DNA of 64,000 bases from Patescibacteria group bacterium (GTDB lineage Bacteria > Patescibacteriota > Patescibacteriia > SG8-24 > DYFX01), in contig JBAZZB010000001.1 of the NCBI GenBank assembly GCA_041659045.1, positions 70,111 to 134,110 on the forward strand, given 5' to 3'. The notes below the pieces were generated by a model that worked only from the letters and a program-made list of their open reading frames with translations, was not told where the DNA came from and made no database searches. The position numbers and the translations under genes are program-made. Below are positions 49,464-59,667 of the stretch, piece after piece. Positions within the stretch are counted from its first letter, which is position 1; each line of letters opens with the position of its first letter.

Positions 49464-51539
49464 ATGAAAACCTACGTCCTCAAGAAAAATGGCGAGGCCC
49501 CCGGTTTCCGCATTGATTACGCGGCGGAGCTCAACGAAGAGCAGCTCGCCGTCGTGATGAACGGTGACGGGCCATGCTTGGTGCTGGCGGGTGCCGGTTC
49601 CGGAAAAACGCGCACGATCGTTTATCGCGTGGCGTATCTTTTGGAAAAGGGGGTCCAGCCGGAGCATATTTTGCTTCTGACTTTCACCAACAAAGCCGCA
49701 CGTGAAATGCGTGAGCGCGTCGCGTCTTTGATTGGCACCGAACCTGGGCGCTTGTGGGGAGGCACGTTCCACCATGTTTGCCACCGTATCTTGAGGGAGC
49801 GGGGGAATCGCGTCGGACTTCGCGAGGGTTTCACAATTCTCGATTCCGAGGACGCGAAGGATCTGATGAAAACCTGCGTGCGAGAACTTGGTGTCGATAC
49901 GAAAGCGAAGCGTTTTCCGTCGCCGGCGGTGCTCTTGAGTCTCGCGTCTTTTTCGTTCAACGCGGGTTTGTCGCTGATCGAAACGATTGAAGCCAAGCAC
50001 CCGGCGTTTCGCGATCATGCTTCGTCTATTGAGGACGTTGTCGCGAGATACATGGCGAAGAAGCGCGCTTCAAACACCGTCGACTTTGATGATCTCTTGC
50101 TCCTGACCGCCAAGCTCTTGCGCGAGGATGAAGACTCCAGGCGCCGCTACGCCGAGCAATTCCGATATATTCTTGTCGACGAGTATCAAGATACAAACCG
50201 CGTTCAAGCGGAAATTGTTTGTCGTCTCGCCACTGCGCACGGCAACGTGGTCGTGGTTGGAGACGACGCGCAGTCGATCTACTCGTTCCGCGGCGCGGAC
50301 ATTCGTAATATCTTGGCGTTTCCAAAATTGTTCCCGAACGCGAAAACGTTCCGACTCGAAACCAACTATCGTTCGACGCCGGAAATTCTAAGTCTCGCCA
50401 ACGACGTCATTTCGAAAAATACCGAGCAGTTTCCCAAGGAACTAAAAAGCATGAAAGCGTCGTTCGCCAAGCCATCGGTGGTGAACGCGGTTTCCGGAGC
50501 GCAGGAAGCGGAATTCGTCGCTCAGCGCATCAGTGAACTGCACGACGAAGGTACGCCCTACGACGAGATCTCTGTGCTCTTCCGCGCGACATTCCATTCG
50601 CAAGCGCTTGAATTCGAACTCATGAAACGCGGTATTCCGTACGACTACCGCGGCGGCATGAAATTTTTTGACCGCGCGCATATTAAGGACGCGCTCGCGT
50701 TTTTGCGCATTGCCACCAACAAAGACGATGAAGTCGCTTGGATGCGCGTTCTGTCGCTCCAGGTCGGCATCGGTCCGGCGACGGCTGTTCGATTGTTCGA
50801 GCGCGTCCGCTCGCTCTCGACGCTTGATGATGTTGCTGACGATGCCGCATCCGGTCTTCCGGCGCGCGCGGCTGCAGGCTGGAAAGCCTTCTTGAAAATG
50901 TTTGGCGACGTACTCGACGCGCGTCCGTCTCCTTCGAATTTGCTGCGGACCGTGGCAGATTCGGAGTACAAGATCTATTTGGAAAACGAATATCCCGACT
51001 ACCGTGATCGGCTTGAAGATCTCGAACAGATTGCGGGTTTCGCCGAGCAGTATCCCGACGTCGAATCGTTTTTGGCCGACGCGGCGCTTCGTGATGATAT
51101 CGCCGCTGCCGGCAAGAACGCGCGTATTCTCAAGCCGACGGATACGGAAGACGGCAAGGTTGTGCTTTCGACCATTCATCAAGCCAAAGGGCTCGAATGG
51201 GACGCGGTCTTCGTTATTCATATGACGCAAGGCGCTTTTCCAAACAAGCGTGCCCTCGTCGAAGGTGACGCGGGTTCGGGTCTGGAAGAGGAGCGTCGTT
51301 TATTCTACGTAGCCGTCACGCGCGCCCGCCGCGACCTATGGCTCACGTACCCGCTTTCGGTCGGATACGGCGATTTTTCTTTCGAGCCGAAGTCGGAATT
51401 CTTGCAAGAGATTTCGCCGCGCTTGGTTGAAGAGGTGCGTATTGAAGAATCCTACGAAGACCTGCCGACGATCTCCTACGACGAAAACGGAGATCCGATC
51501 CAGCGAAAGGGTTTGTTAAAAAATATCGACGAGTATTGA
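49464..51539 (+). CDS. ATP-dependent DNA helicase, UvrD/PcrA/Rep family
   Basis: LNEEQLAVVMNGDGPCLVLAGAGSGKTRT (Walker A), LTFTNKAAREM, ILVDEYQDTN (Walker B), VGDDAQSIYSFRGA, C-terminal LFYVAVTRAR. Confidence 0.85.
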   Translation: MKTYVLKKNGEAPGFRIDYAAELNEEQLAVVMNGDGPCLVLAGAGSGKTRTIVYRVAYLLEKGVQPEHILLLTFTNKAAREMRERVASLIGTEPGRLWGGTFHHVCHRILRERGNRVGLREGFTILDSEDAKDLMKTCVRELGVDTKAKRFPSPAVLLSLASFSFNAGLSLIETIEAKHPAFRDHASSIEDVVARYMAKKRASNTVDFDDLLLLTAKLLREDEDSRRRYAEQFRYILVDEYQDTNRVQAEIVCRLATAHGNVVVVGDDAQSIYSFRGADIRNILAFPKLFPNAKTFRLETNYRSTPEILSLANDVISKNTEQFPKELKSMKASFAKPSVVNAVSGAQEAEFVAQRISELHDEGTPYDEISVLFRATFHSQALEFELMKRGIPYDYRGGMKFFDRAHIKDALAFLRIATNKDDEVAWMRVLSLQVGIGPATAVRLFERVRSLSTLDDVADDAASGLPARAAAGWKAFLKMFGDVLDARPSPSNLLRTVADSEYKIYLENEYPDYRDRLEDLEQIAGFAEQYPDVESFLADAALRDDIAAAGKNARILKPTDTEDGKVVLSTIHQAKGLEWDAVFVIHMTQGAFPNKRALVEGDAGSGLEEERRLFYVAVTRARRDLWLTYPLSVGYGDFSFEPKSEFLQEISPRLVEEVRIEESYEDLPTISYDENGDPIQRKGLLKNIDEY

Positions 51540-51553
51540 TCGGAAATAAAAGA

Positions 51554-51586
51554 GCCTCGACCTTAGGTCGAGGCTTTGCCGATTTT
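51554..51586. terminator. bidirectional terminator between the helicase and the DHH gene
   Basis: gcctcgacc-ttag-gtcgaggc hairpin followed by tttgccgatttt; the TAA stop of the minus-strand gene lies in the loop. Confidence 0.6.
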
Positions 51587-52660
51587 GCCGTTGCGATCCC
51601 CGACGCGTCCGCGCCGCAGTTGGACCCGGCGCTTGAACTGAGCGCTGAGAAATGCGATGAGCAGGTCGGCCGATTCGGGAAACGGTACGTGGGGTTCGGC
51701 GAGCTGATAGCGCGCGCCGCCGGAGCCGTGCTTGGCGCCGCCGTTGCCTTTGCCGAAGATCTCCTCGATGAACTTGGTGAGGGGCAGCTCCTTGCTGTAG
51801 CTGCGCACCGACGCGCGTACCCAGGCGCCCGTGACGCCCCAGATGACGGTCGTCTCGGCGCCTTCGTTGCGACGCTGACGGTTGGCGATGATCGAGAGCA
51901 GGTCGCCGTCATCTTCCTTGAGGAGGCTGGTCGTGTGCGCGATACGTACGCCGTCGATCACTTCGATCGTGGCGAGGATCTCTCGCTCCAGATCCGAAAA
52001 GTGCGACGGAAGACGGAAGTTGAAGCACGCTTCGAGCAGCTCTTGATCGCCGTCCATCATGAGCCAGGCGAATGTTTCGATGTCCGCCGGACGTACGATG
52101 CCGAGCGTCAGGTGTTCGGTGTCCGAGTGGATACCGACGGCGGCAAGCGTACGGAGCTTCTTGTCCATCGGGACCTTGAGCTCGCGAGCGAGGAGCGTGC
52201 AGAGCGTTGTGGCCGAACCACACGATTCGATCAGATCGAAGCCGTTCTTGATCTTCATCGTCTGCTCGAGATGGTGGTCGACGCGGTAGACAAAGCGCTT
52301 CGGATCGATCTTCACACCGGCACCGAACCGCGAGTCTTCGAGCCGCGACGAATCGACGAGACCGAGCGGCCCTCTTTCAGGCAGCTCGGCGAGCGGTCGC
52401 ATCGTCTTCATCAGCTCCCACTCGTTGTAGAGGAGCTGGTTCTGCGGATGTCCGAAGCCGCCGGCGTAGTAGATCTCGCAGGCCACGCCTTGCGACTCGA
52501 AGAGTGCCTTCGTGACGTGTGCCGCCGCGATGCCGTCCGGATCGATCTGTGCGACGATGATCGAAATCTGTTCTGCCGCCTTCAGCGTCTTGATGAGGGC
52601 TTTGAGTCTCTGGATGTGATCGGGCTTCAAGAGACCGGTCGTGTTTGAATGTGCAGCCAT
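51563..52660 (-). CDS. DHH family phosphoesterase (NrnA-like), high-GC3 gene
   Basis: GGAGG RBS; DHH motifs IVAQIDPDGIAAAH, YRVDHH, DHHA1-like GGAKHGSGGA. Confidence 0.65.
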   Translation of the reverse strand: MAAHSNTTGLLKPDHIQRLKALIKTLKAAEQISIIVAQIDPDGIAAAHVTKALFESQGVACEIYYAGGFGHPQNQLLYNEWELMKTMRPLAELPERGPLGLVDSSRLEDSRFGAGVKIDPKRFVYRVDHHLEQTMKIKNGFDLIESCGSATTLCTLLARELKVPMDKKLRTLAAVGIHSDTEHLTLGIVRPADIETFAWLMMDGDQELLEACFNFRLPSHFSDLEREILATIEVIDGVRIAHTTSLLKEDDGDLLSIIANRQRRNEGAETTVIWGVTGAWVRASVRSYSKELPLTKFIEEIFGKGNGGAKHGSGGARYQLAEPHVPFPESADLLIAFLSAQFKRRVQLRRGRVGDRNGKIGKAST

Positions 52661-52734
52661 GCTTCCTCCGCGGCGAGCATACGCCTTTTACACGCCGTGT
52701 CAATGTGCTACATTCGTGCCGGAGGAATCCCAAC

Positions 52735-53271
52735 ATGCAACACATGACGGAAGACAAGGAATACGAAGAGAAGTTCCTGGTACGGCAGGATCTCTTGCCG
52801 CGTACGTTGCTGTCGGGCCTCTCTAGCATCCGACAGGGTTTTCTTTCGCTTGATCCGGTCGTGCGCATCCGTGAGCAAGACGGTGTCTATGTCGCCGAGT
52901 TCAAGGGTGGTGACGATGATGAGATCTTGATCGGGCATCCAACGCCGAAGCACGGCGCGAAGCTGCTCGGCCACTGCGCCGACGTGGCCGGCATCATCAC
53001 GAAAGGACGCGGTCGCATCGAAGCCGGTTTCGATCAGCGCGTGTGGGAACTCGATGTCTTCCGTGGGAAGAATGCGCCGCTCATGGTCGTCGAGATCGAG
53101 AAACCAACCAAGACGTATTCGCTCAAAAAGCACAAAGCGCTTTGGCCGGAGTGGATTGGCAAGAATGTCACGAAGGACAAGCGCTTCAAGAACAAATATC
53201 TTGCCGTGCACCCGTTCTCAACGTGGCCGAAGACCGAACAGAAGAAAATCCTCAGATTCATGGGCGTATAG
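52735..53271 (+). CDS. CYTH-domain (triphosphate tunnel metalloenzyme) protein
   Basis: GGAGGAA RBS; N-terminal EYEEKFLV matches the CYTH ExExK signature; about 180 aa. Confidence 0.55.
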   Translation: MQHMTEDKEYEEKFLVRQDLLPRTLLSGLSSIRQGFLSLDPVVRIREQDGVYVAEFKGGDDDEILIGHPTPKHGAKLLGHCADVAGIITKGRGRIEAGFDQRVWELDVFRGKNAPLMVVEIEKPTKTYSLKKHKALWPEWIGKNVTKDKRFKNKYLAVHPFSTWPKTEQKKILRFMGV

Positions 53272-53416
53272 CCCATTTTTTCTTTGGGGATAACTCAGGG
53301 TTGTGCCTGGGGGTAGAGGCACTATACTAGGGGCACCTAAGGACACCGCATATGTTGAACCGGACGCAATTCATTGCACGGCACACAGGCGATTTCCGAT
53401 TGGTAACAAAAAGCTC

Positions 53417-53443
53417 TTCATCGTGAAGAGTTTTTTGTATGCT
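53417..53443 (+). terminator. terminator-like hairpin downstream of CYTH gene
   Basis: aaaagctcttca-tcg-tgaagagtttttt. Confidence 0.45.
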
Positions 53444-53493
53444 CCTTGACCGGAGTTCCTTCCACCCACGTTGCAGACCAAGAGAGGTATGTC

Positions 53494-54921
53494 ATGGCGA
53501 ACAAGACCCCGCGTGAAGTTGTCGCGGAGTTTGCTGCGCAAGTCTGCGGCAAGCCCCCGAAGACGATTACTCCCGACGAGAAGACCAAGATTCTCGAGAA
53601 GTGCGTGCGGTACAAGATCGGTCGACGGCGCGTGGGCGAATGCCTGCGCGACCTCGGCTACAAGCAGGAGCTCCCCGCGCGCCAGCAGCCGCAGATTCTG
53701 AAGATGATCGCACGCGCCTTCAAGGCCGCGCAGAATCCCAAGAATCGGAACGAGCTGACGCTGCTCAAGGACAAGCTCCTCGCGGAAATCGAAGACGCAA
53801 CCAAGACGCTCGGCATCGCCAAGCCGTCGTGGGATCACGTCCTCGAGATCGCGCGCGGCATCTCGGGGCTTCCTCAGTGGCCACGCGCCACGGGGTTGCC
53901 GCCCGGCCCTCTGTCGGACGATGAACTGCGCAAGCAGCTCACCGACTTCATGGTGCGAGCGCGTACCGAAAAGGAGGTCAAGAAGAAGTACGGTGATCGC
54001 GGCCTCGCGCTGCTCGCCGGACTCGTTCAGACGCCTCCCGCCGGCTTTCGCATGAAGGATGGTCGCAACGAGTGGCAGGAGAAGACGCTCTACCTGGAGC
54101 AGATTCTCGGCAAGCGTGTCGTGAAGGTTGGCAAGCGCGTGTTCGAGATCCGGCACTCCGAGAACGACATCGACTACGTGTCGGTGATCTTTCCGCAGAG
54201 CCTGGATTTCGCCGACTCGCCCGAAGACAACCAGATCCGCATTCTGCCGATCGACACCGTCTGGTACGGAGACCACGGCTGCGACCTCGAGCGTTTCAAG
54301 GAGTACCTCCTGTACATCGAGCGCAAGCCGTACGTCTTCGCCTTCCTGAACGGCGACATCATCGGCGGCAGCGACTACACCAAGGATACGGCGGTGCTTC
54401 GGCGCGCGGAGCTCAAGGAGCTTCTCAAGCCGGTGGCACACAAGATCCTCTGGGCGCAGTCCGGGCCGCTCGAGCGTCGCATGCGCCGGGTCGACGGCAT
54501 CGAGCCTCTGGCTGACGTCTGCAACGACCTCAAGATCCATCACACGGATCGCCCGGTCGGCGCTGACGTCTACTGGAAGATCCCGACGAAGCCGATCGAG
54601 TTCGTCGCTCTGCACGGCCGTTCGCAGGCCCGCAAGGACGGCTCGAAGGTCAACGCCCTGCAAGACATCGTCGTCGGCAACAACTTCCCGCACTTCGTGG
54701 TCCTGGGCCACTTGCAGGAAGGCATCACCAAGAGCTTCACGGTGCGCCGGCGAGATCCGGTCAACCTGACGATCTTGGAGCATACGACGATCGGCATCGT
54801 TTGCCCGGGCTTCCGCAAGCACCGGGGATCCGACGCCGAGAAGAAGGGCTACCCGTCGCCGGCCATGGGCACCGTCGGGTGCCTGATCGGCGCCGACAAC
54901 TCCCACAAGGCCGCGAGCTAG
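53494..54921 (+). CDS. calcineurin-like phosphoesterase-related protein with degenerate catalytic motifs (paralog A), high-GC3 gene
   Basis: About 200-aa helical N-terminal region, then a C-terminal domain alignable to the downstream gene (PIDTVWYGDHGCD vs PFSDVHYGHRRCD, FLNGD in both, GYPSP vs GYSPG). The DxH of motif I is replaced by TVW, GNHD by GNNF, and GHxH by GHLQ. Confidence 0.5.
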   Translation: MANKTPREVVAEFAAQVCGKPPKTITPDEKTKILEKCVRYKIGRRRVGECLRDLGYKQELPARQQPQILKMIARAFKAAQNPKNRNELTLLKDKLLAEIEDATKTLGIAKPSWDHVLEIARGISGLPQWPRATGLPPGPLSDDELRKQLTDFMVRARTEKEVKKKYGDRGLALLAGLVQTPPAGFRMKDGRNEWQEKTLYLEQILGKRVVKVGKRVFEIRHSENDIDYVSVIFPQSLDFADSPEDNQIRILPIDTVWYGDHGCDLERFKEYLLYIERKPYVFAFLNGDIIGGSDYTKDTAVLRRAELKELLKPVAHKILWAQSGPLERRMRRVDGIEPLADVCNDLKIHHTDRPVGADVYWKIPTKPIEFVALHGRSQARKDGSKVNALQDIVVGNNFPHFVVLGHLQEGITKSFTVRRRDPVNLTILEHTTIGIVCPGFRKHRGSDAEKKGYPSPAMGTVGCLIGADNSHKAAS

Positions 54922-54929
54922 GAGGACGT

Positions 54930-56030
54930 ATGAAGAACAAGCACGCCTTGATCGAACAGTTGGTCAAGATCTCTTCTCGCGGCCGTCGCGTGGAAGAGAT
55001 CGCTCGCGAGCTTGAGGAGCCGGTCGACAAGATCCAAGCGCTCCTCGAGAGCAAGCCGCGCATGCCGGAAGGTTTCCTGCTCACGAGCTGGAAGGACCAT
55101 CTCGGCATGACGTACTGGCAAGTCCTGGCACCCGAAGCGCCGCCGCCGAAGATCGAACCGCGCGCGTACCGCTACGTCCGTTCGAAGGACGAGGCCTACC
55201 ACCGCGTGTTCATCCCCGACGACATCGTCGACGAGAACGGACGTCCCGCGAAGTACATCGAGCTGTTCCCGTTCTCCGACGTGCACTACGGGCATCGTCG
55301 CTGCGACAAGGGCAACTTCATGCGCGACGTGAAGGAAGTGGCGCGGCGGCCCAACCGCTACGGCTTCCTGAACGGCGACAACATGGAGATGTCTCTTGGC
55401 GACAGCGCTGGCGGTGCCGCGTGGGCCGAGCAGGACCTGACGCCCGAAGAGCAGCGCGAGAAGTCGGAACACATCTACCGGCCCATCGCGCACAAGCTCA
55501 TCGTGGCCCGTACGGGCAACCACGATGGTCGTCCGGGACGCAACGGCTCCGGCATGAATCCTCTGAAGGAAGTGTGCAAGAGCCTGGGCGGCATCCCGTA
55601 CTTCAACGGACCTTCCAACATGGACGTCATCTGGAGGGGGTACAGCTGGTCTTTCTTCATGAAGCACGGTACGGGGTCCTCGAACACGGCTGGCGGTAAG
55701 CTGAACACCGCCGGACGCGATCGTGGCTTCACCGACTTCCGGAACTTCTTCATCATGGGCCACGTCCACGATGAGATGTCCCACAAGGTCGTGCGAAAGG
55801 TGCGTCGCCGTGTCTATGACGCGGATGGCAAGCTCCAGCGCTTCTGGGAGGAAGAGCTTCGTGAGTACAAGGTGATCTGTCCGTCGTACCTGCTCTACTC
55901 GGGTACGTACGCGGAAGAAGCGGGGTACAGCCCCGGCAGCCGGAACACGATCGTGATCCAGTTGTTCGCCAGCGGCGACTACCGCGTGGTCTCGAGCAAG
56001 CGTGGACAGAACACGGTGCTCGCCATCTGA
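54930..56030 (+). CDS. calcineurin-like metallophosphoesterase (paralog B, all catalytic motifs intact), high-GC3 gene
   Basis: GGAGG RBS; SDVHYGH (DxH), FLNGD (GD), TGNHDGRP (GNHD), IMGHVHDE (GHxH); about 95-aa N-terminal helical extension. Confidence 0.6.
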   Translation: MKNKHALIEQLVKISSRGRRVEEIARELEEPVDKIQALLESKPRMPEGFLLTSWKDHLGMTYWQVLAPEAPPPKIEPRAYRYVRSKDEAYHRVFIPDDIVDENGRPAKYIELFPFSDVHYGHRRCDKGNFMRDVKEVARRPNRYGFLNGDNMEMSLGDSAGGAAWAEQDLTPEEQREKSEHIYRPIAHKLIVARTGNHDGRPGRNGSGMNPLKEVCKSLGGIPYFNGPSNMDVIWRGYSWSFFMKHGTGSSNTAGGKLNTAGRDRGFTDFRNFFIMGHVHDEMSHKVVRKVRRRVYDADGKLQRFWEEELREYKVICPSYLLYSGTYAEEAGYSPGSRNTIVIQLFASGDYRVVSSKRGQNTVLAI

Positions 56031-56039
56031 AACGCATAA

Positions 56040-56074
56040 CCCCCCGACATACGTCGGAGGGTTTTTCTTTTTTC
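56040..56074. terminator. bidirectional intrinsic terminator
   Basis: ccccccgac-atac-gtcggaggg hairpin followed by tttttcttttttc; a convergent minus-strand gene ends 15 nt further on. Confidence 0.8.
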
Positions 56075-56088
56075 TGCGTTGGCGTCGC

Positions 56089-56847
56089 TTATGGCGCGGG
56101 CTGCGTGGCGGGTTGGAAACCGGAGGAACCGGTTTTCACGATCGTGAGATCGAAACCGAGATCTTCTTTTACGACGCTGATTAGCGTTGGATTGGTGATG
56201 TTGAAAATATCGCCGCGGCCGCGCGGTTCAAGGAGGAATCCGCCGAAGACGTAGGTTTGTCCGGGGATGGGATCGGCGTTCAGATTTGCGACAAGGGCTT
56301 TTTCGGCAACGATGACTTCTCGTTCAAGGGGCACGATGCCAAAGACGGCAAGACTACGACTGATCCCCACCGTCGCGTCAAACGTGAACGATATGATCTT
56401 TTTTCCCATCAAGGCAGCCTTCACATTACCGTCTGCGTAGGCCAGTTCTGCGGCCGGAGAAAATTCCAGTGTGAGTCGCGTCCAACGTCCATCGGGAATG
56501 CGCTCGCTCAAGACCTTCTGAACGGAGCCTGGCTGCAACATGACACGTTGAACGCCGCTGAAAAACTCTGTCGACGCGCCGGAGGCATCCACAACCGTCG
56601 CTTTGACGAGTGTAAGCTCTGCGCGTGACGCGTTGTCCGGCAACGCGGACGGGGGAGCCAGATAGAGGTTGAGCGCGCTGTTGCGTGCCTTCTCAGGTGT
56701 TTCCGGGGTTGAAATGACGGGCGTGACGGGCGTCTTTTTTCCGTACGGCGGCAATCCAAAACGCGGCGCAATGAACAGGAGCCAGAGAACGGCGCAGGCT
56801 GCGAGGAGCGCGATTGTCAGCAAGAGTGAGAACGTCGAGCGTTTCAT
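56089..56847 (-). CDS. secreted hypothetical protein
   Basis: Only the C-terminal 252 codons of track ORF 56089-57660 are real: start at MKRSTFSLLLTIALLAACAV (signal peptide). The upstream part is antisense to metK. Confidence 0.55.
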   Translation of the reverse strand: MKRSTFSLLLTIALLAACAVLWLLFIAPRFGLPPYGKKTPVTPVISTPETPEKARNSALNLYLAPPSALPDNASRAELTLVKATVVDASGASTEFFSGVQRVMLQPGSVQKVLSERIPDGRWTRLTLEFSPAAELAYADGNVKAALMGKKIISFTFDATVGISRSLAVFGIVPLEREVIVAEKALVANLNADPIPGQTYVFGGFLLEPRGRGDIFNITNPTLISVVKEDLGFDLTIVKTGSSGFQPATQPAP

Positions 56848-56913
56848 ACGCAAACAGTATATCATGGCGTACCGTCCCCGAACGACGTGCCGCGTCCTTG
56901 GGGAAAAACGTTG

Positions 56914-56942: not shown

Positions 56943-56958
56943 TGGACGGCATTTCCCC

Positions 56959-57999
56959 ATGAAAACAGCTGAATCCGTCACCGAAGGCCATCCCGACAAA
57001 GTCTGCGATCAAATCGCCGATGCTTTGTTGGATGAATATCTCCGTCGCGACCCACGCAGCCGTGTCGCGCTCGAGGTTTTTGGTTCGCACGGAATGCTCA
57101 TGGTCGGCGGCGAGGTGACTTCGCAAGGCGAAGTCGACATCGAAGCGATGGCCAAGCACGTCTACAAGCAGATCGGTTATGACGACGAACTCGAAGTCTT
57201 CGTGAACATCGAACTGCAGTCCGGCGACATCGCGCAAGGTGTCGACGTGGGCGGGGCAGGGGACCAAGGCATCATGTACGGTTACGCTTCGATCGAAACA
57301 CCGAGCTTCATGCCGGCGCCGATCGCGCACGCGCACGCTCTCTCGACGAGCTTGTCTGATTTGCGCCGCCACGATCCAGCCTTCGCCTGGCTTCGGCCCG
57401 ACGGCAAAACGCAGGTTACGATGGATCATGGTCGCGTCACGACCGTCGTTGTTTCCGCGCAGCACGCGCCAGATATCGCGCAGGAAGAAATTCGCGCGCG
57501 CATTATGGAGCGCGTCATCACGCCGGTTATCGGCTCGCTCGACGGTGTCGAAGTCCACGTCAATCCGACGGGCCGCTTTGTCGTGGGTGGTTTCACGGCC
57601 GATACCGGCCTCACGGGACGCAAATTGATGGTTGATACCTACGGCGGCATCATTCCGCACGGCGGCGGCGCTTTTTCAGGAAAGGATTCGACGAAGGTCG
57701 ATCGCTCCGCAGCCTACATGGCGCGCTTTGCTGCTAAGAACCTCGTGGCTGCCGGATACGCCAAGAAGTGCATGGTCTCGGTCGCGTACGCGATCGGTAA
57801 GGCAGATCCTGTGATGTTGACCGCGCGCTCTGAGGACGGACGTGATTTGTCGCCACTTCTTATGAAGTATTTTGACTTCCGTCCGCAAGCAATTATCGAG
57901 CGGCTCGATTTGCGCAAGCCGATTTTCCGCGCCTCCGCGGCCTACGGTCACTTTGGTCGCGATCAGTTCCCGTGGGAACGATTGATCGAGTTGAAATAA
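56959..57999 (+). CDS. metK: S-adenosylmethionine synthetase (short, 346 aa)
   Basis: TAESVTEGHPDKVCDQIADALLDEYL, GAGDQGIMYGYA, GGGAFSGKDSTKVDRSAAY. Confidence 0.9.
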   Translation: MKTAESVTEGHPDKVCDQIADALLDEYLRRDPRSRVALEVFGSHGMLMVGGEVTSQGEVDIEAMAKHVYKQIGYDDELEVFVNIELQSGDIAQGVDVGGAGDQGIMYGYASIETPSFMPAPIAHAHALSTSLSDLRRHDPAFAWLRPDGKTQVTMDHGRVTTVVVSAQHAPDIAQEEIRARIMERVITPVIGSLDGVEVHVNPTGRFVVGGFTADTGLTGRKLMVDTYGGIIPHGGGAFSGKDSTKVDRSAAYMARFAAKNLVAAGYAKKCMVSVAYAIGKADPVMLTARSEDGRDLSPLLMKYFDFRPQAIIERLDLRKPIFRASAAYGHFGRDQFPWERLIELK

Positions 58000-59591: not shown

Positions 59592-59667
59592 GGGTCGGTA
59601 GCTCAGTCGGTAGAGCAACAGCCTTTTAAGCTGATGGTCCCGGGTTCGATCCCCGGCCGACCCACCA
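59592..59667 (+). tRNA. tRNA-Lys (anticodon UUU), CCA encoded
   Basis: Cloverleaf folded by hand: acceptor GGGTCGG/CCGACCC, D arm GCTC-AGTCGGTA-GAGC, anticodon loop CTTTTAA (TTT), T arm CCGGG-TTCGATC-CCCGG, discriminator A, then CCA. Confidence 0.85.

Follow-up and report, generated by a model that had tools for sequence, protein, structure and literature searches.

A 2026 preprint describes the phage T5 protein A1 as a metallo-phosphatase by prediction, sharing features with nucleases of double-strand-break repair and of proofreading, and A2 as a separate DNA-binding protein alongside it (bioRxiv 10.64898/2026.04.02.716235). It reports A1 to be both necessary and sufficient for degradation of host DNA (bioRxiv 10.64898/2026.04.02.716235, section 18). 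Metallophosphoesterases (MPEs) of the family phrog_7339, which bear names such as 'DNA repair exonuclease' and 'metal-dependent hydrolase', occur as single active copies in Bacillus phages Stills, Slash and Staley, Brevibacillus phage Jenst and uncultured Caudoviricetes, and PolD and the polymerase B-subunits set a precedent for live and dead versions of an MPE within one lineage. Among regulatory RNAs, pyrBI-type translation-coupled attenuators combine a promoter, a short frame that ends inside an intrinsic terminator, and an operon that lacks a promoter of its own. The locus analyzed here lies in 64,000 nucleotides of contig JBAZZB010000001.1 of a Patescibacteria group bacterium (assembly GCA_041659045.1), and this whole stretch is called the window below. 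Four adjacent genes encode a DHH-like protein, a CYTH-like protein and two MPE-like proteins designated A and B, and a conserved leader RNA precedes A. The balance of evidence tips slightly toward a leader-gated, swappable, phage-derived helix-turn-helix-MPE nuclease cassette (leader, A and B) that stands beside two housekeeping-type hydrolases. The genes and the hairpins around them lie where an earlier reading of this DNA, the original prediction, had placed them.

Protein B consists of a winged helix and an intact MPE domain. Scanned directly against Pfam and NCBIfam, the window proteins yield almost nothing (A and B have no Pfam match of their own), and families were assigned through alignments of homologues; about 25 homologues of B carry PF00149. 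The active-site residues of B are D117/H119, GD150, GNH197-198, H246 and GHVH278-280. In an alignment of 31 sequences, numbered one higher on account of an extra leading residue in the query, there is no variation at D118, D151, H199, H247, H279 and H281, and at least 90% of the sequences keep H120 and N198. The AlphaFold model of B (mean predicted local distance difference test score, pLDDT, 90.3) has an N-terminal winged helix followed by the MPE core. Its best Foldseek match among solved structures is the PolD DP1 exonuclease subunit (4e-8), followed by PP2A/PP1, Rv0805 and GpdQ, and its best viral fold matches are phage MPEs. An exact-sequence look-up of B found nothing on record.

Protein A is a paralog of B (tblastn E 1e-18 to 1e-33) with an N-terminal helical domain (residues 1-130), a winged helix and an MPE domain that is predicted to be catalytically dead. 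The motif I Asp and His are gone, GNH has become SGPLE or GCLE, and GHVH has become GHLQ, GNLN or GRMK; these losses are common to all five A orthologs examined. The model of A (pLDDT 84) retains the MPE fold, and its nearest neighbors are the dead B-subunits of Pol delta and Pol zeta (3e-6), LpxH, CD73 and Mre11. The N-terminal 144 residues have no Pfam or phage match, and sequence searches of the PDB with A, B and the proteins that replace them in relatives were uninformative. Judged from these motifs, B has a complete active site and A is a pseudo-enzyme. Homolog profiles, motifs and folds uphold the family originally predicted for each of the four proteins. The count of four superfamilies and four enzymes does not stand, and the four genes represent three superfamilies and probably three enzymes.

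A and B might form a DNA-bound pseudo-dimer, a heterodimeric nuclease in which B would cleave DNA phosphodiester bonds and A would act as a scaffold or targeting subunit. Their functional coupling is suggested by a natural fusion protein, P0121 (781 residues), in which an A-like dead MPE domain is joined to a B-like winged helix and live MPE domain. Candidate substrates are DNA, RNA, nucleotides and protein phosphate, of which DNA is favored by the modeled folds. The best solved folds liken the pair to PolD DP1 and the eukaryotic polymerase B-subunits, with the live DP1 matching B and the dead Pol delta and Pol zeta subunits matching A. Unlike these subunits, A and B have no identified OB-fold region and no polymerase partner nearby, and they compare with them at TM-scores of 0.27-0.47 and identities of 8-14%. 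They also differ from Mre11/SbcD, which are weak fold matches, in that no Rad50/SbcC partner gene occurs in any of the contexts examined.

Sequence relatives of the pair are found in phages. Both proteins match phrog_7339, annotated as 'DNA repair exonuclease' (B at 6e-28, A at 3e-9), and neither matches phrog_1745. B is 22-34% identical to annotated phage genes, and relatives on viral contigs align over its full length, including the winged-helix region, with 29-35% identity. In 44 viral loci these relatives are single genes and never an A/B pair. The window differs from the phage family in carrying a duplicated pair, with one member dead, in a bacterial core-gene neighborhood. An exhaustive profile search returned 599 cluster representatives at E<=1e-30. 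On two phage contigs from IMG/VR (L016, 1407-11876; L022, 2315-12368), a winged-helix-MPE gene lies in the head module by the large terminase, in the order large terminase, portal, (methyltransferase), MPE, (endonuclease VII), protease-major-capsid fusion.

The gene order UvrD-DHH-CYTH-leader-MPE-X-MetK is found in 14/14 loci of one clade (UvrD 78-95% identical), comprising the window, L007-L010, L055, L060 and seven metagenome fragments; a narrow-alignment scan of the genome collection yielded three loci only. Pairwise among six genomes, identity is 78-95% for UvrD and 86-97% for MetK, 44-68% for X, 46-79% for CYTH, 30-78% for DHH, and 0-86% for the MPE slot, which holds three types of protein. 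These are the A+B pair (window, L055, L060), a 754-residue protein (L007) and a 708-709-residue protein (L008-L010 and the metagenome loci). The first 130 residues of the 754-residue protein are 49% identical to the N-terminus of A, with which it has nothing else in common. Its remainder matches phrog_1745, 'DNA transfer protein', at 3e-93, and the protein matches 1129 phage records annotated A1, T5 A1-like or 'DNA transfer protein'. The 708-residue type has a MarR-like winged helix; its homology to A/B is not claimed, as the profile comparison was not significant.

Sister genomes thus keep the leader and the flanking genes but carry non-alignable proteins between them, one of them T5 A1-like, and the MPE slot is therefore most likely a swappable nuclease cassette of phage origin. 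A homolog of T5 A1, a phage-type metallophosphatase thought to be a DNase, occupies the same leader-controlled slot in L007. Unlike A1, the window proteins belong to phrog_7339, are chromosomal, form a dead/live pair and have their DNA-binding domains fused. The exchange forms a mosaic in which single genes differ in their identity: in L055 the values are 91% for UvrD and 30% for DHH, and in L008 they are 78% for DHH and 46% for CYTH. The DHH genes of L055 (2634-3713) and L060 (8001-9074) encode proteins about 30% identical to the window DHH, alongside UvrD at 91% and MetK at 92-95% (over the parts held). By these identities, the L055/L060 DHH is an in-place replacement by a very divergent allele, as is the L008 CYTH (46%).

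The A/B pair is kept in L001-L006, L055, L057 and L060. In L001/L056, L002 and L003/L004 it is flanked by MetK and UvrD but oriented the other way round, and DHH, CYTH and X are missing from the surrounding 7-8 kb. In L005/L006 and L057 it occupies other contexts that also lack DHH and CYTH. The pair is a robust unit because it is found outside the clade without these genes, and the four-gene adjacency is lineage-specific. This adjacency could simply be inherited, since a wider region of about 20 kb is also syntenic in the clade (YceG, NTP-transferase, PAP2, DUF2207, CNNM, C39 peptidase, DUF5658, DUF3048). The original prediction raised the possibility that all four genes belong to a single system for nucleotide second messengers or nucleic-acid targeting, and it named conservation of the gene neighborhood as a check. 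The neighborhood recurs within the clade, and in distant relatives the genes are not co-localized and stand in unrelated contexts. What speaks for a single system is that the DHH-CYTH-leader-MPE order persists in every clade locus despite divergent alleles (DHH 30%, CYTH 46-53%, MPE non-alignable), with UvrD and MetK staying at 78-97% while the neighboring alleles diverge. In addition, G+C content at third codon positions (GC3) is raised in all four genes (DHH 0.79, as had been noted, CYTH 0.72, A 0.86 and B 0.84, vs 0.64-0.69 in the flanks; whole window G+C 57%). GC3 of the MPE gene exceeds that of flanking genes in every genome checked (window, L001, L003, L007, L008, L055).

The 222-nucleotide region between CYTH and A is conserved in 13 distinct sequences and contains the leader RNA, which consists of a P1 helix, an upstream frame and a terminator hairpin (Table 1). 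RNAalifold pairs the Shine-Dalgarno (SD) region of the frame with codons 13-16 to form P1. Across the 13-sequence alignment, 96.3% of cells are consistent with pairing, compared with 48-73% in slid controls; the hairpin stem is 98.7% paired, and four pairs are altered on both sides. The frame, of 23-25 codons, is open in 13/13 sequences with an invariant ATG and an SD-like AAGGA or AAGAA, and the +1 frame contains stops in 11/13. The third codon position varies least; the leader peptide itself therefore does not seem to be under selection, and protein coding was rejected as the main constraint on the 24-codon frame. A covariance model of the leader has one match in the window (102.8 bits), no second one there and none in leaderless A/B loci or viral loci. 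Rfam 15 has no match to it at gathering score, and only chance-level matches at E<=10.

These features suggest that the leader is a translation-gated attenuator of A/B. By default, P1 would hide the SD sequence of the 23-25 codon frame, the terminator would form, and transcription would halt before A. If the frame is translated, the ribosome would reach the stop codon inside the terminator and block the hairpin, and transcription would then read through into A-B. In L009 and L010 about 35 nucleotides separate the U-tract from the start codon of the downstream gene. This distance is too short for a separate promoter, and the gene is therefore expected to be read through the hairpin. The resemblance to pyrBI-type attenuators lies in the promoter, the short frame ending inside an intrinsic terminator and the operon without its own promoter. 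Unlike these, the window leader has no anti-terminator alternative or regulatory codon run that could be found, its frame has a sequestered SD sequence, and it lacks an Rfam match. The suggestion that a hairpin at 53417-53443 might be an attenuator rather than a terminator thus gains support from its conservation together with the upstream promoter, the SD-sequestering helix and the upstream frame, and from the lack of room for a promoter downstream in some relatives.

The alternative that survives best, although we consider it unlikely, is that the element at 53301-53438 is a self-contained small gene, for a 24-residue peptide or a small RNA of about 100 nucleotides, and does not attenuate A/B. 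The element would amount to a complete gene, with an open frame that comes with an SD-like site, promoter-like blocks and a strong terminator, and it is unchanged whatever gene follows it. Against this, the peptide is not conserved and shows no third-position excess, and the downstream genes have no recognizable promoter, with the short L009/L010 spacing leaving them little room for one. The element also always lies directly upstream of the MPE gene and on the same strand (14/14 loci), as expected if the leader is an attenuator.

Two short motifs flank the leader. A DnaA-box-like 9-mer with one mismatch lies just upstream of the leader promoter in the window, and the distant, leaderless locus L002 has an exact TTATCCACA about 120 nucleotides upstream of its A gene. 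Such sites are not enriched in the window (4 one-mismatch sites vs 5.0 expected). The motif GTTC(T/C)TTCC(A) occurs 20-35 nucleotides upstream of the MPE start in the window (53459-53469), L001, L007-L010 and L061-L068, of which L001 is leaderless. It could be an operator or a 5' untranslated region element, perhaps a candidate site for the winged-helix domains.

The segment is predicted to comprise three independent transcription units, DHH, CYTH and leader-A-B. The 74-nucleotide DHH-CYTH spacer carries the sole two promoter-like (sigma-70-like) sites that the scan found in 8 kb. They overlap, with one on each strand, and the conserved blocks of the spacer in six genomes coincide with their hexamers, in agreement with the divergent promoters originally predicted for a spacer of about 75 bp. 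The stem of the CYTH terminator is invariant across all relatives and its loop is variable, and all 13 distinct sequences keep this terminator and the promoter blocks beyond it unchanged. The leader promoter was recognized from this conservation pattern (two invariant blocks) and not called by the promoter scan. With a conserved terminator and a leader promoter between them, CYTH and the pair do not appear to form the single unit that had been considered. A and B are assigned to one operon because the A stop codon overlaps the B SD sequence and the gap is 8 nucleotides. In L009 (9896-10015) and L010 (9910-10015) the CYTH start codon lies 7-8 nucleotides past the conserved -10 box and a leaderless mRNA is expected, unlike the window and L007/L008, where CYTH has the SD sequence GGAGGA.

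Both outer hairpins, described originally as strong bidirectional terminators, are found. The hairpin at 51553-51575 has folding energies of -23.8 and -20.4 kcal/mol (range -20 to -24 on either strand); its - strand has a good U-tract and its + strand a weak one. The one at about 56038-56063 (-19 to -23 kcal/mol) has a strong U-tract on the + strand only and a weak tail on the - strand; it is essentially a terminator for B and not clearly bidirectional. Terminator-like sites number 13 in 8 kb vs 8.2 +/- 3.1 expected, which is not above chance, and the sites are credible because they are placed at gene ends and conserved in relatives, not by their count.

Table 1. Coordinates of genes and predicted regulatory features at the locus (window numbering)
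Feature	Position	Strand	Remarks
UvrD/PcrA-type helicase gene	49464-51539	+	stop at 51539
Stem-loop terminator between convergent UvrD and DHH	51553-51575		10-12 bp stem; DHH stop codon in loop
DHH-like gene	51563-52660	-	365 residues
Divergent promoter region DHH/CYTH	52676-52714	both	conserved in 6 genomes
P_DHH	-35 TTGACA 52703-52698; -10 TATGCT 52681-52676	-	promoter scan
P_CYTH	-35 TTTACA 52687-52692; TG-extended -10 TACATT 52709-52714	+	promoter scan
CYTH-like gene	52735-53271	+	178 residues
CYTH terminator	53262-53284	+	GGGCG-loop-GCCC, then U-tract; stop codon in loop
DnaA-box-like 9-mer	53285-53293		TGGGGATAA in window; exact TGTGGATAA in all relatives with leader
Inferred leader promoter	53301-53328	+	-35 TTGTGC 53301-06; -10 TATACT 53323-28; variable 16-nucleotide spacer
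Conserved leader RNA	53335-53438	+	P1 helix, upstream frame, terminator hairpin
P1 helix	53342-53351 paired with 53387-53396	+	covers SD-like AAGGA
Upstream frame	53352-53426	+	24 codons (MLNRTQFIARHTGDFRLVTKSSSS); stop codon 53424-26
Leader terminator hairpin	53406-53438	+	12-bp stem flanked by A- and U-tracts; frame stop in 3' arm
Protein A gene	53494-54921	+	475 residues
Protein B gene	54930-56030	+	366 residues
A/B operon terminator	56038-56074	+	stem-loop ~56038-56063, then UUUUUCUUUUUUC
Gene X	56089-56892	-	hypothetical; hydrophobic anchor at N-terminus
MetK gene	about 56956-57999	+	

The DHH protein scores 17 bits in the Pfam scan, below the cut-off of 28.1. DHH motifs I-IV (D40, D42, D103, D128-H129-H130 and D180) are invariant among 20 homologs, and the homologs P0104 and P0115 carry PF02272. 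The best solved match of the family-alignment profile is the catalytic domain of GdpP, a cyclic di-AMP phosphodiesterase (6e-16). The profile also matches TmPDE, Rv2837c and NrnA across both domains (residues 17-301), and family II pyrophosphatases in the DHH domain only. Its motifs and profile matches mark the protein as a probable stand-alone DHH/DHHA1 phosphodiesterase, of the same kind as NrnA, Pde2, TmPDE and the GdpP catalytic domain, with intact catalytic residues, and its likely role is housekeeping clearance of short oligonucleotides, pAp or dinucleotides. It keeps motifs I-IV and aligns in both domains with NrnA, Rv2837c/CnpB, TmPDE and the GdpP catalytic domain. Unlike them, it is very divergent, has GGAKHGSGG (GGxxHGxGG) in the Gly-rich stretch of DHHA1 in place of the canonical GGGH, and has had its allele exchanged for a 30%-identical version in close relatives. 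Two distant homologs lie in unrelated contexts, one among dUTPase/DHFR/ThyA genes and the other among HNH/RNR genes.

The CYTH protein itself has no Pfam match; its orthologs reach 25.4-25.7 bits vs the Pfam CYTH cut-off of 23.2. Its profile aligns at full length with NeuTTM (2fbl, 8e-20) and with 3typ (1e-19), and E9, E11 and K13 (ExExK), R44, R46, K57, E63, K90, R92, E105, D107, E120 and E122 are invariant. NeuTTM acts specifically as an inorganic triphosphatase (PMC3440374) and clusters with CthTTM, away from the class IV adenylyl cyclases (PMC8233210). Cyclases do occur among CYTH proteins (PMC8233210), which would suit a signaling system. The profile matches no class IV cyclase structure at E<0.01, and a class IV cyclase role was set aside, as the profile groups with inorganic triphosphatases (PMC8233210). 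The protein is, on its profile and residues, a CYTH triphosphate-tunnel enzyme of the NeuTTM/CthTTM type with its catalytic residues kept, and it likely serves in housekeeping hydrolysis of tri- or polyphosphate. It resembles NeuTTM/CthTTM in its full-length alignment and its invariant ExExK and tunnel residues (PMC3440374, PMC8233210). What sets it apart from them is a conserved extension at the C-terminus, VTxDxRFKNKxLAxxPFxxW.

Gene X, convergent with B, encodes a product of about 267 residues without a family match. It adjoins MetK throughout the clade (43-73% identity) and is absent from the leaderless A/B loci. Relatives of the non-DHH genes are in Parcubacteria-type candidate-phyla bacteria. 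High GC3 produces long antisense shadow open reading frames over DHH (51536-52648, +) and over A (53371-54906, -). A tRNA-Lys (UUU) gene at 59592-59667 is the sole RNA gene detected in the 64-kb window.

Several observations weigh against the interpretation of the locus as a leader-gated, swappable nuclease cassette. The leader promoter is absent from the consensus-scan calls, and its -35 element matches in 3/6 positions. No anti-terminator helix was identified in the leader, and frame diversity is 0.38/0.43/0.33 at codon positions 1/2/3, without third-position excess. All 14 leader-bearing loci belong to one clade and the covariation evidence is thin; they also all keep DHH and CYTH adjacent, so a functional link is conceivable. 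The MPE motifs of the 708-residue type (a degenerate N-terminal and an intact C-terminal set) were read by eye only, and profile-profile comparison (hhalign) of the 754- and 708-residue proteins with the A and B families was not significant. An MPE gene fills the slot of every clade genome, and accessory defense genes usually vary in presence and absence. Lastly, a nuclease substrate is deduced from fold neighbors, at TM-scores of 0.44-0.47, and from database names. The purpose of a putative A/B nuclease may be conflict or defense, DNA scavenging or repair.

It is doubtful that A/B is a housekeeping repair or replication exonuclease, a stand-in for SbcD/Mre11 or a proofreading subunit, that has stood beside UvrD since the Parcubacteria ancestor. 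The pair does lie between MetK and UvrD even where UvrD is only 50-57% identical, PolD DP1, polymerase B-subunits and Mre11 come closest to it in fold, and a DnaA-box-like site lies upstream in two lineages. One B-family homolog (P0127, 713 residues) has an intein/homing-endonuclease insertion directly after GNHE, and inteins are typical of replication or repair proteins. However, no SbcC/Rad50-type partner occurs in the contexts examined, and the pair is inverted relative to UvrD/MetK between lineages and never co-transcribed with UvrD. In addition, a T5 A1-like protein replaces it in L007, where UvrD is 95% identical. The family is also small, with about 600 clusters at E<=1e-30, and phage head modules often carry it.

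A bolder extension of the cassette interpretation, in which we place equally little confidence, is that the leader and the interchangeable helix-turn-helix-MPE cassette (A-B pair, T5 A1-like or 708-residue fused protein) constitute a previously undescribed Patescibacteria conflict module. A phage-derived nuclease would be held off by a translation-sensing attenuator and released when translation or its coupling to transcription is upset, as infection might do. The DHH and CYTH proteins, which lie alongside and diversify with it, would then process nucleotide products or a signal.

Nucleic-acid scavenging is improbable. Here, in a symbiont unable to make its own nucleotides, the nuclease would fragment imported or host DNA that UvrD unwinds, DHH would turn short oligonucleotides into mononucleotides, and CYTH would act on tri- or polyphosphate. 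Phosphoester or phosphoanhydride bonds in nucleic-acid-type substrates are the predicted target of every one of these parts, an MPE gene in every clade slot looks core and not accessory, and T5 A1-type proteins drive bulk DNA degradation. Patescibacteria are not known to make nucleotides de novo, which also counts in its favor. Yet the units are transcribed separately, A/B occurs elsewhere without DHH or CYTH, and by inspection none of A, B, DHH and CYTH has a signal peptide. A tight, default-off leader would be odd for a bulk catabolic enzyme, and scavenging leaves the repeated exchange for non-homologous MPE types unexplained.

Least probable of all is the single second-messenger or nucleic-acid-targeting system of the original prediction, in which, for example, CYTH would make or trim a signaling nucleotide, DHH would degrade it and A/B would be the effector: the GdpP match of DHH is compatible with such a signal, but conserved terminators and promoters separate three units, A/B stands without DHH or CYTH in L001-L006 and L057 and has single relatives in the viral loci, distant DHH homologs keep other company, CYTH sides with NeuTTM/CthTTM, synteny extends over the entire 20-kb region, PADLOC-DB 2.0 has no match at E<=0.1 for DHH, CYTH, A, B or X, and Pfam, NCBIfam and PADLOC scans found no cyclase, sensor or CARF/SAVED-type domain among the window proteins. 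Because no defense family matches and no cyclase or sensor was found, this proposal has no positive support beyond adjacency in one clade.

We found nothing in the literature on this gene combination. What is new is the phage-type MPE pseudo-enzyme/enzyme pair, the conserved and uncatalogued leader, and a slot filled by unrelated proteins in relatives; the themes themselves are known. If the cassette serves only housekeeping, then the finding is an ordinary one. In the tiny genomes of candidate phyla, most non-housekeeping genes are unassigned, and this locus appears to hold a phage-type nuclease family that has become fixed in a core-gene neighborhood, split into a dead and a live member, and put behind a conserved leader RNA. 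Should the leader prove to be a translation-gated switch, it would join the few cis-regulatory RNAs reported from this radiation. A conflict or scavenging role of the cassette nuclease would bear on how episymbionts handle foreign or host DNA.

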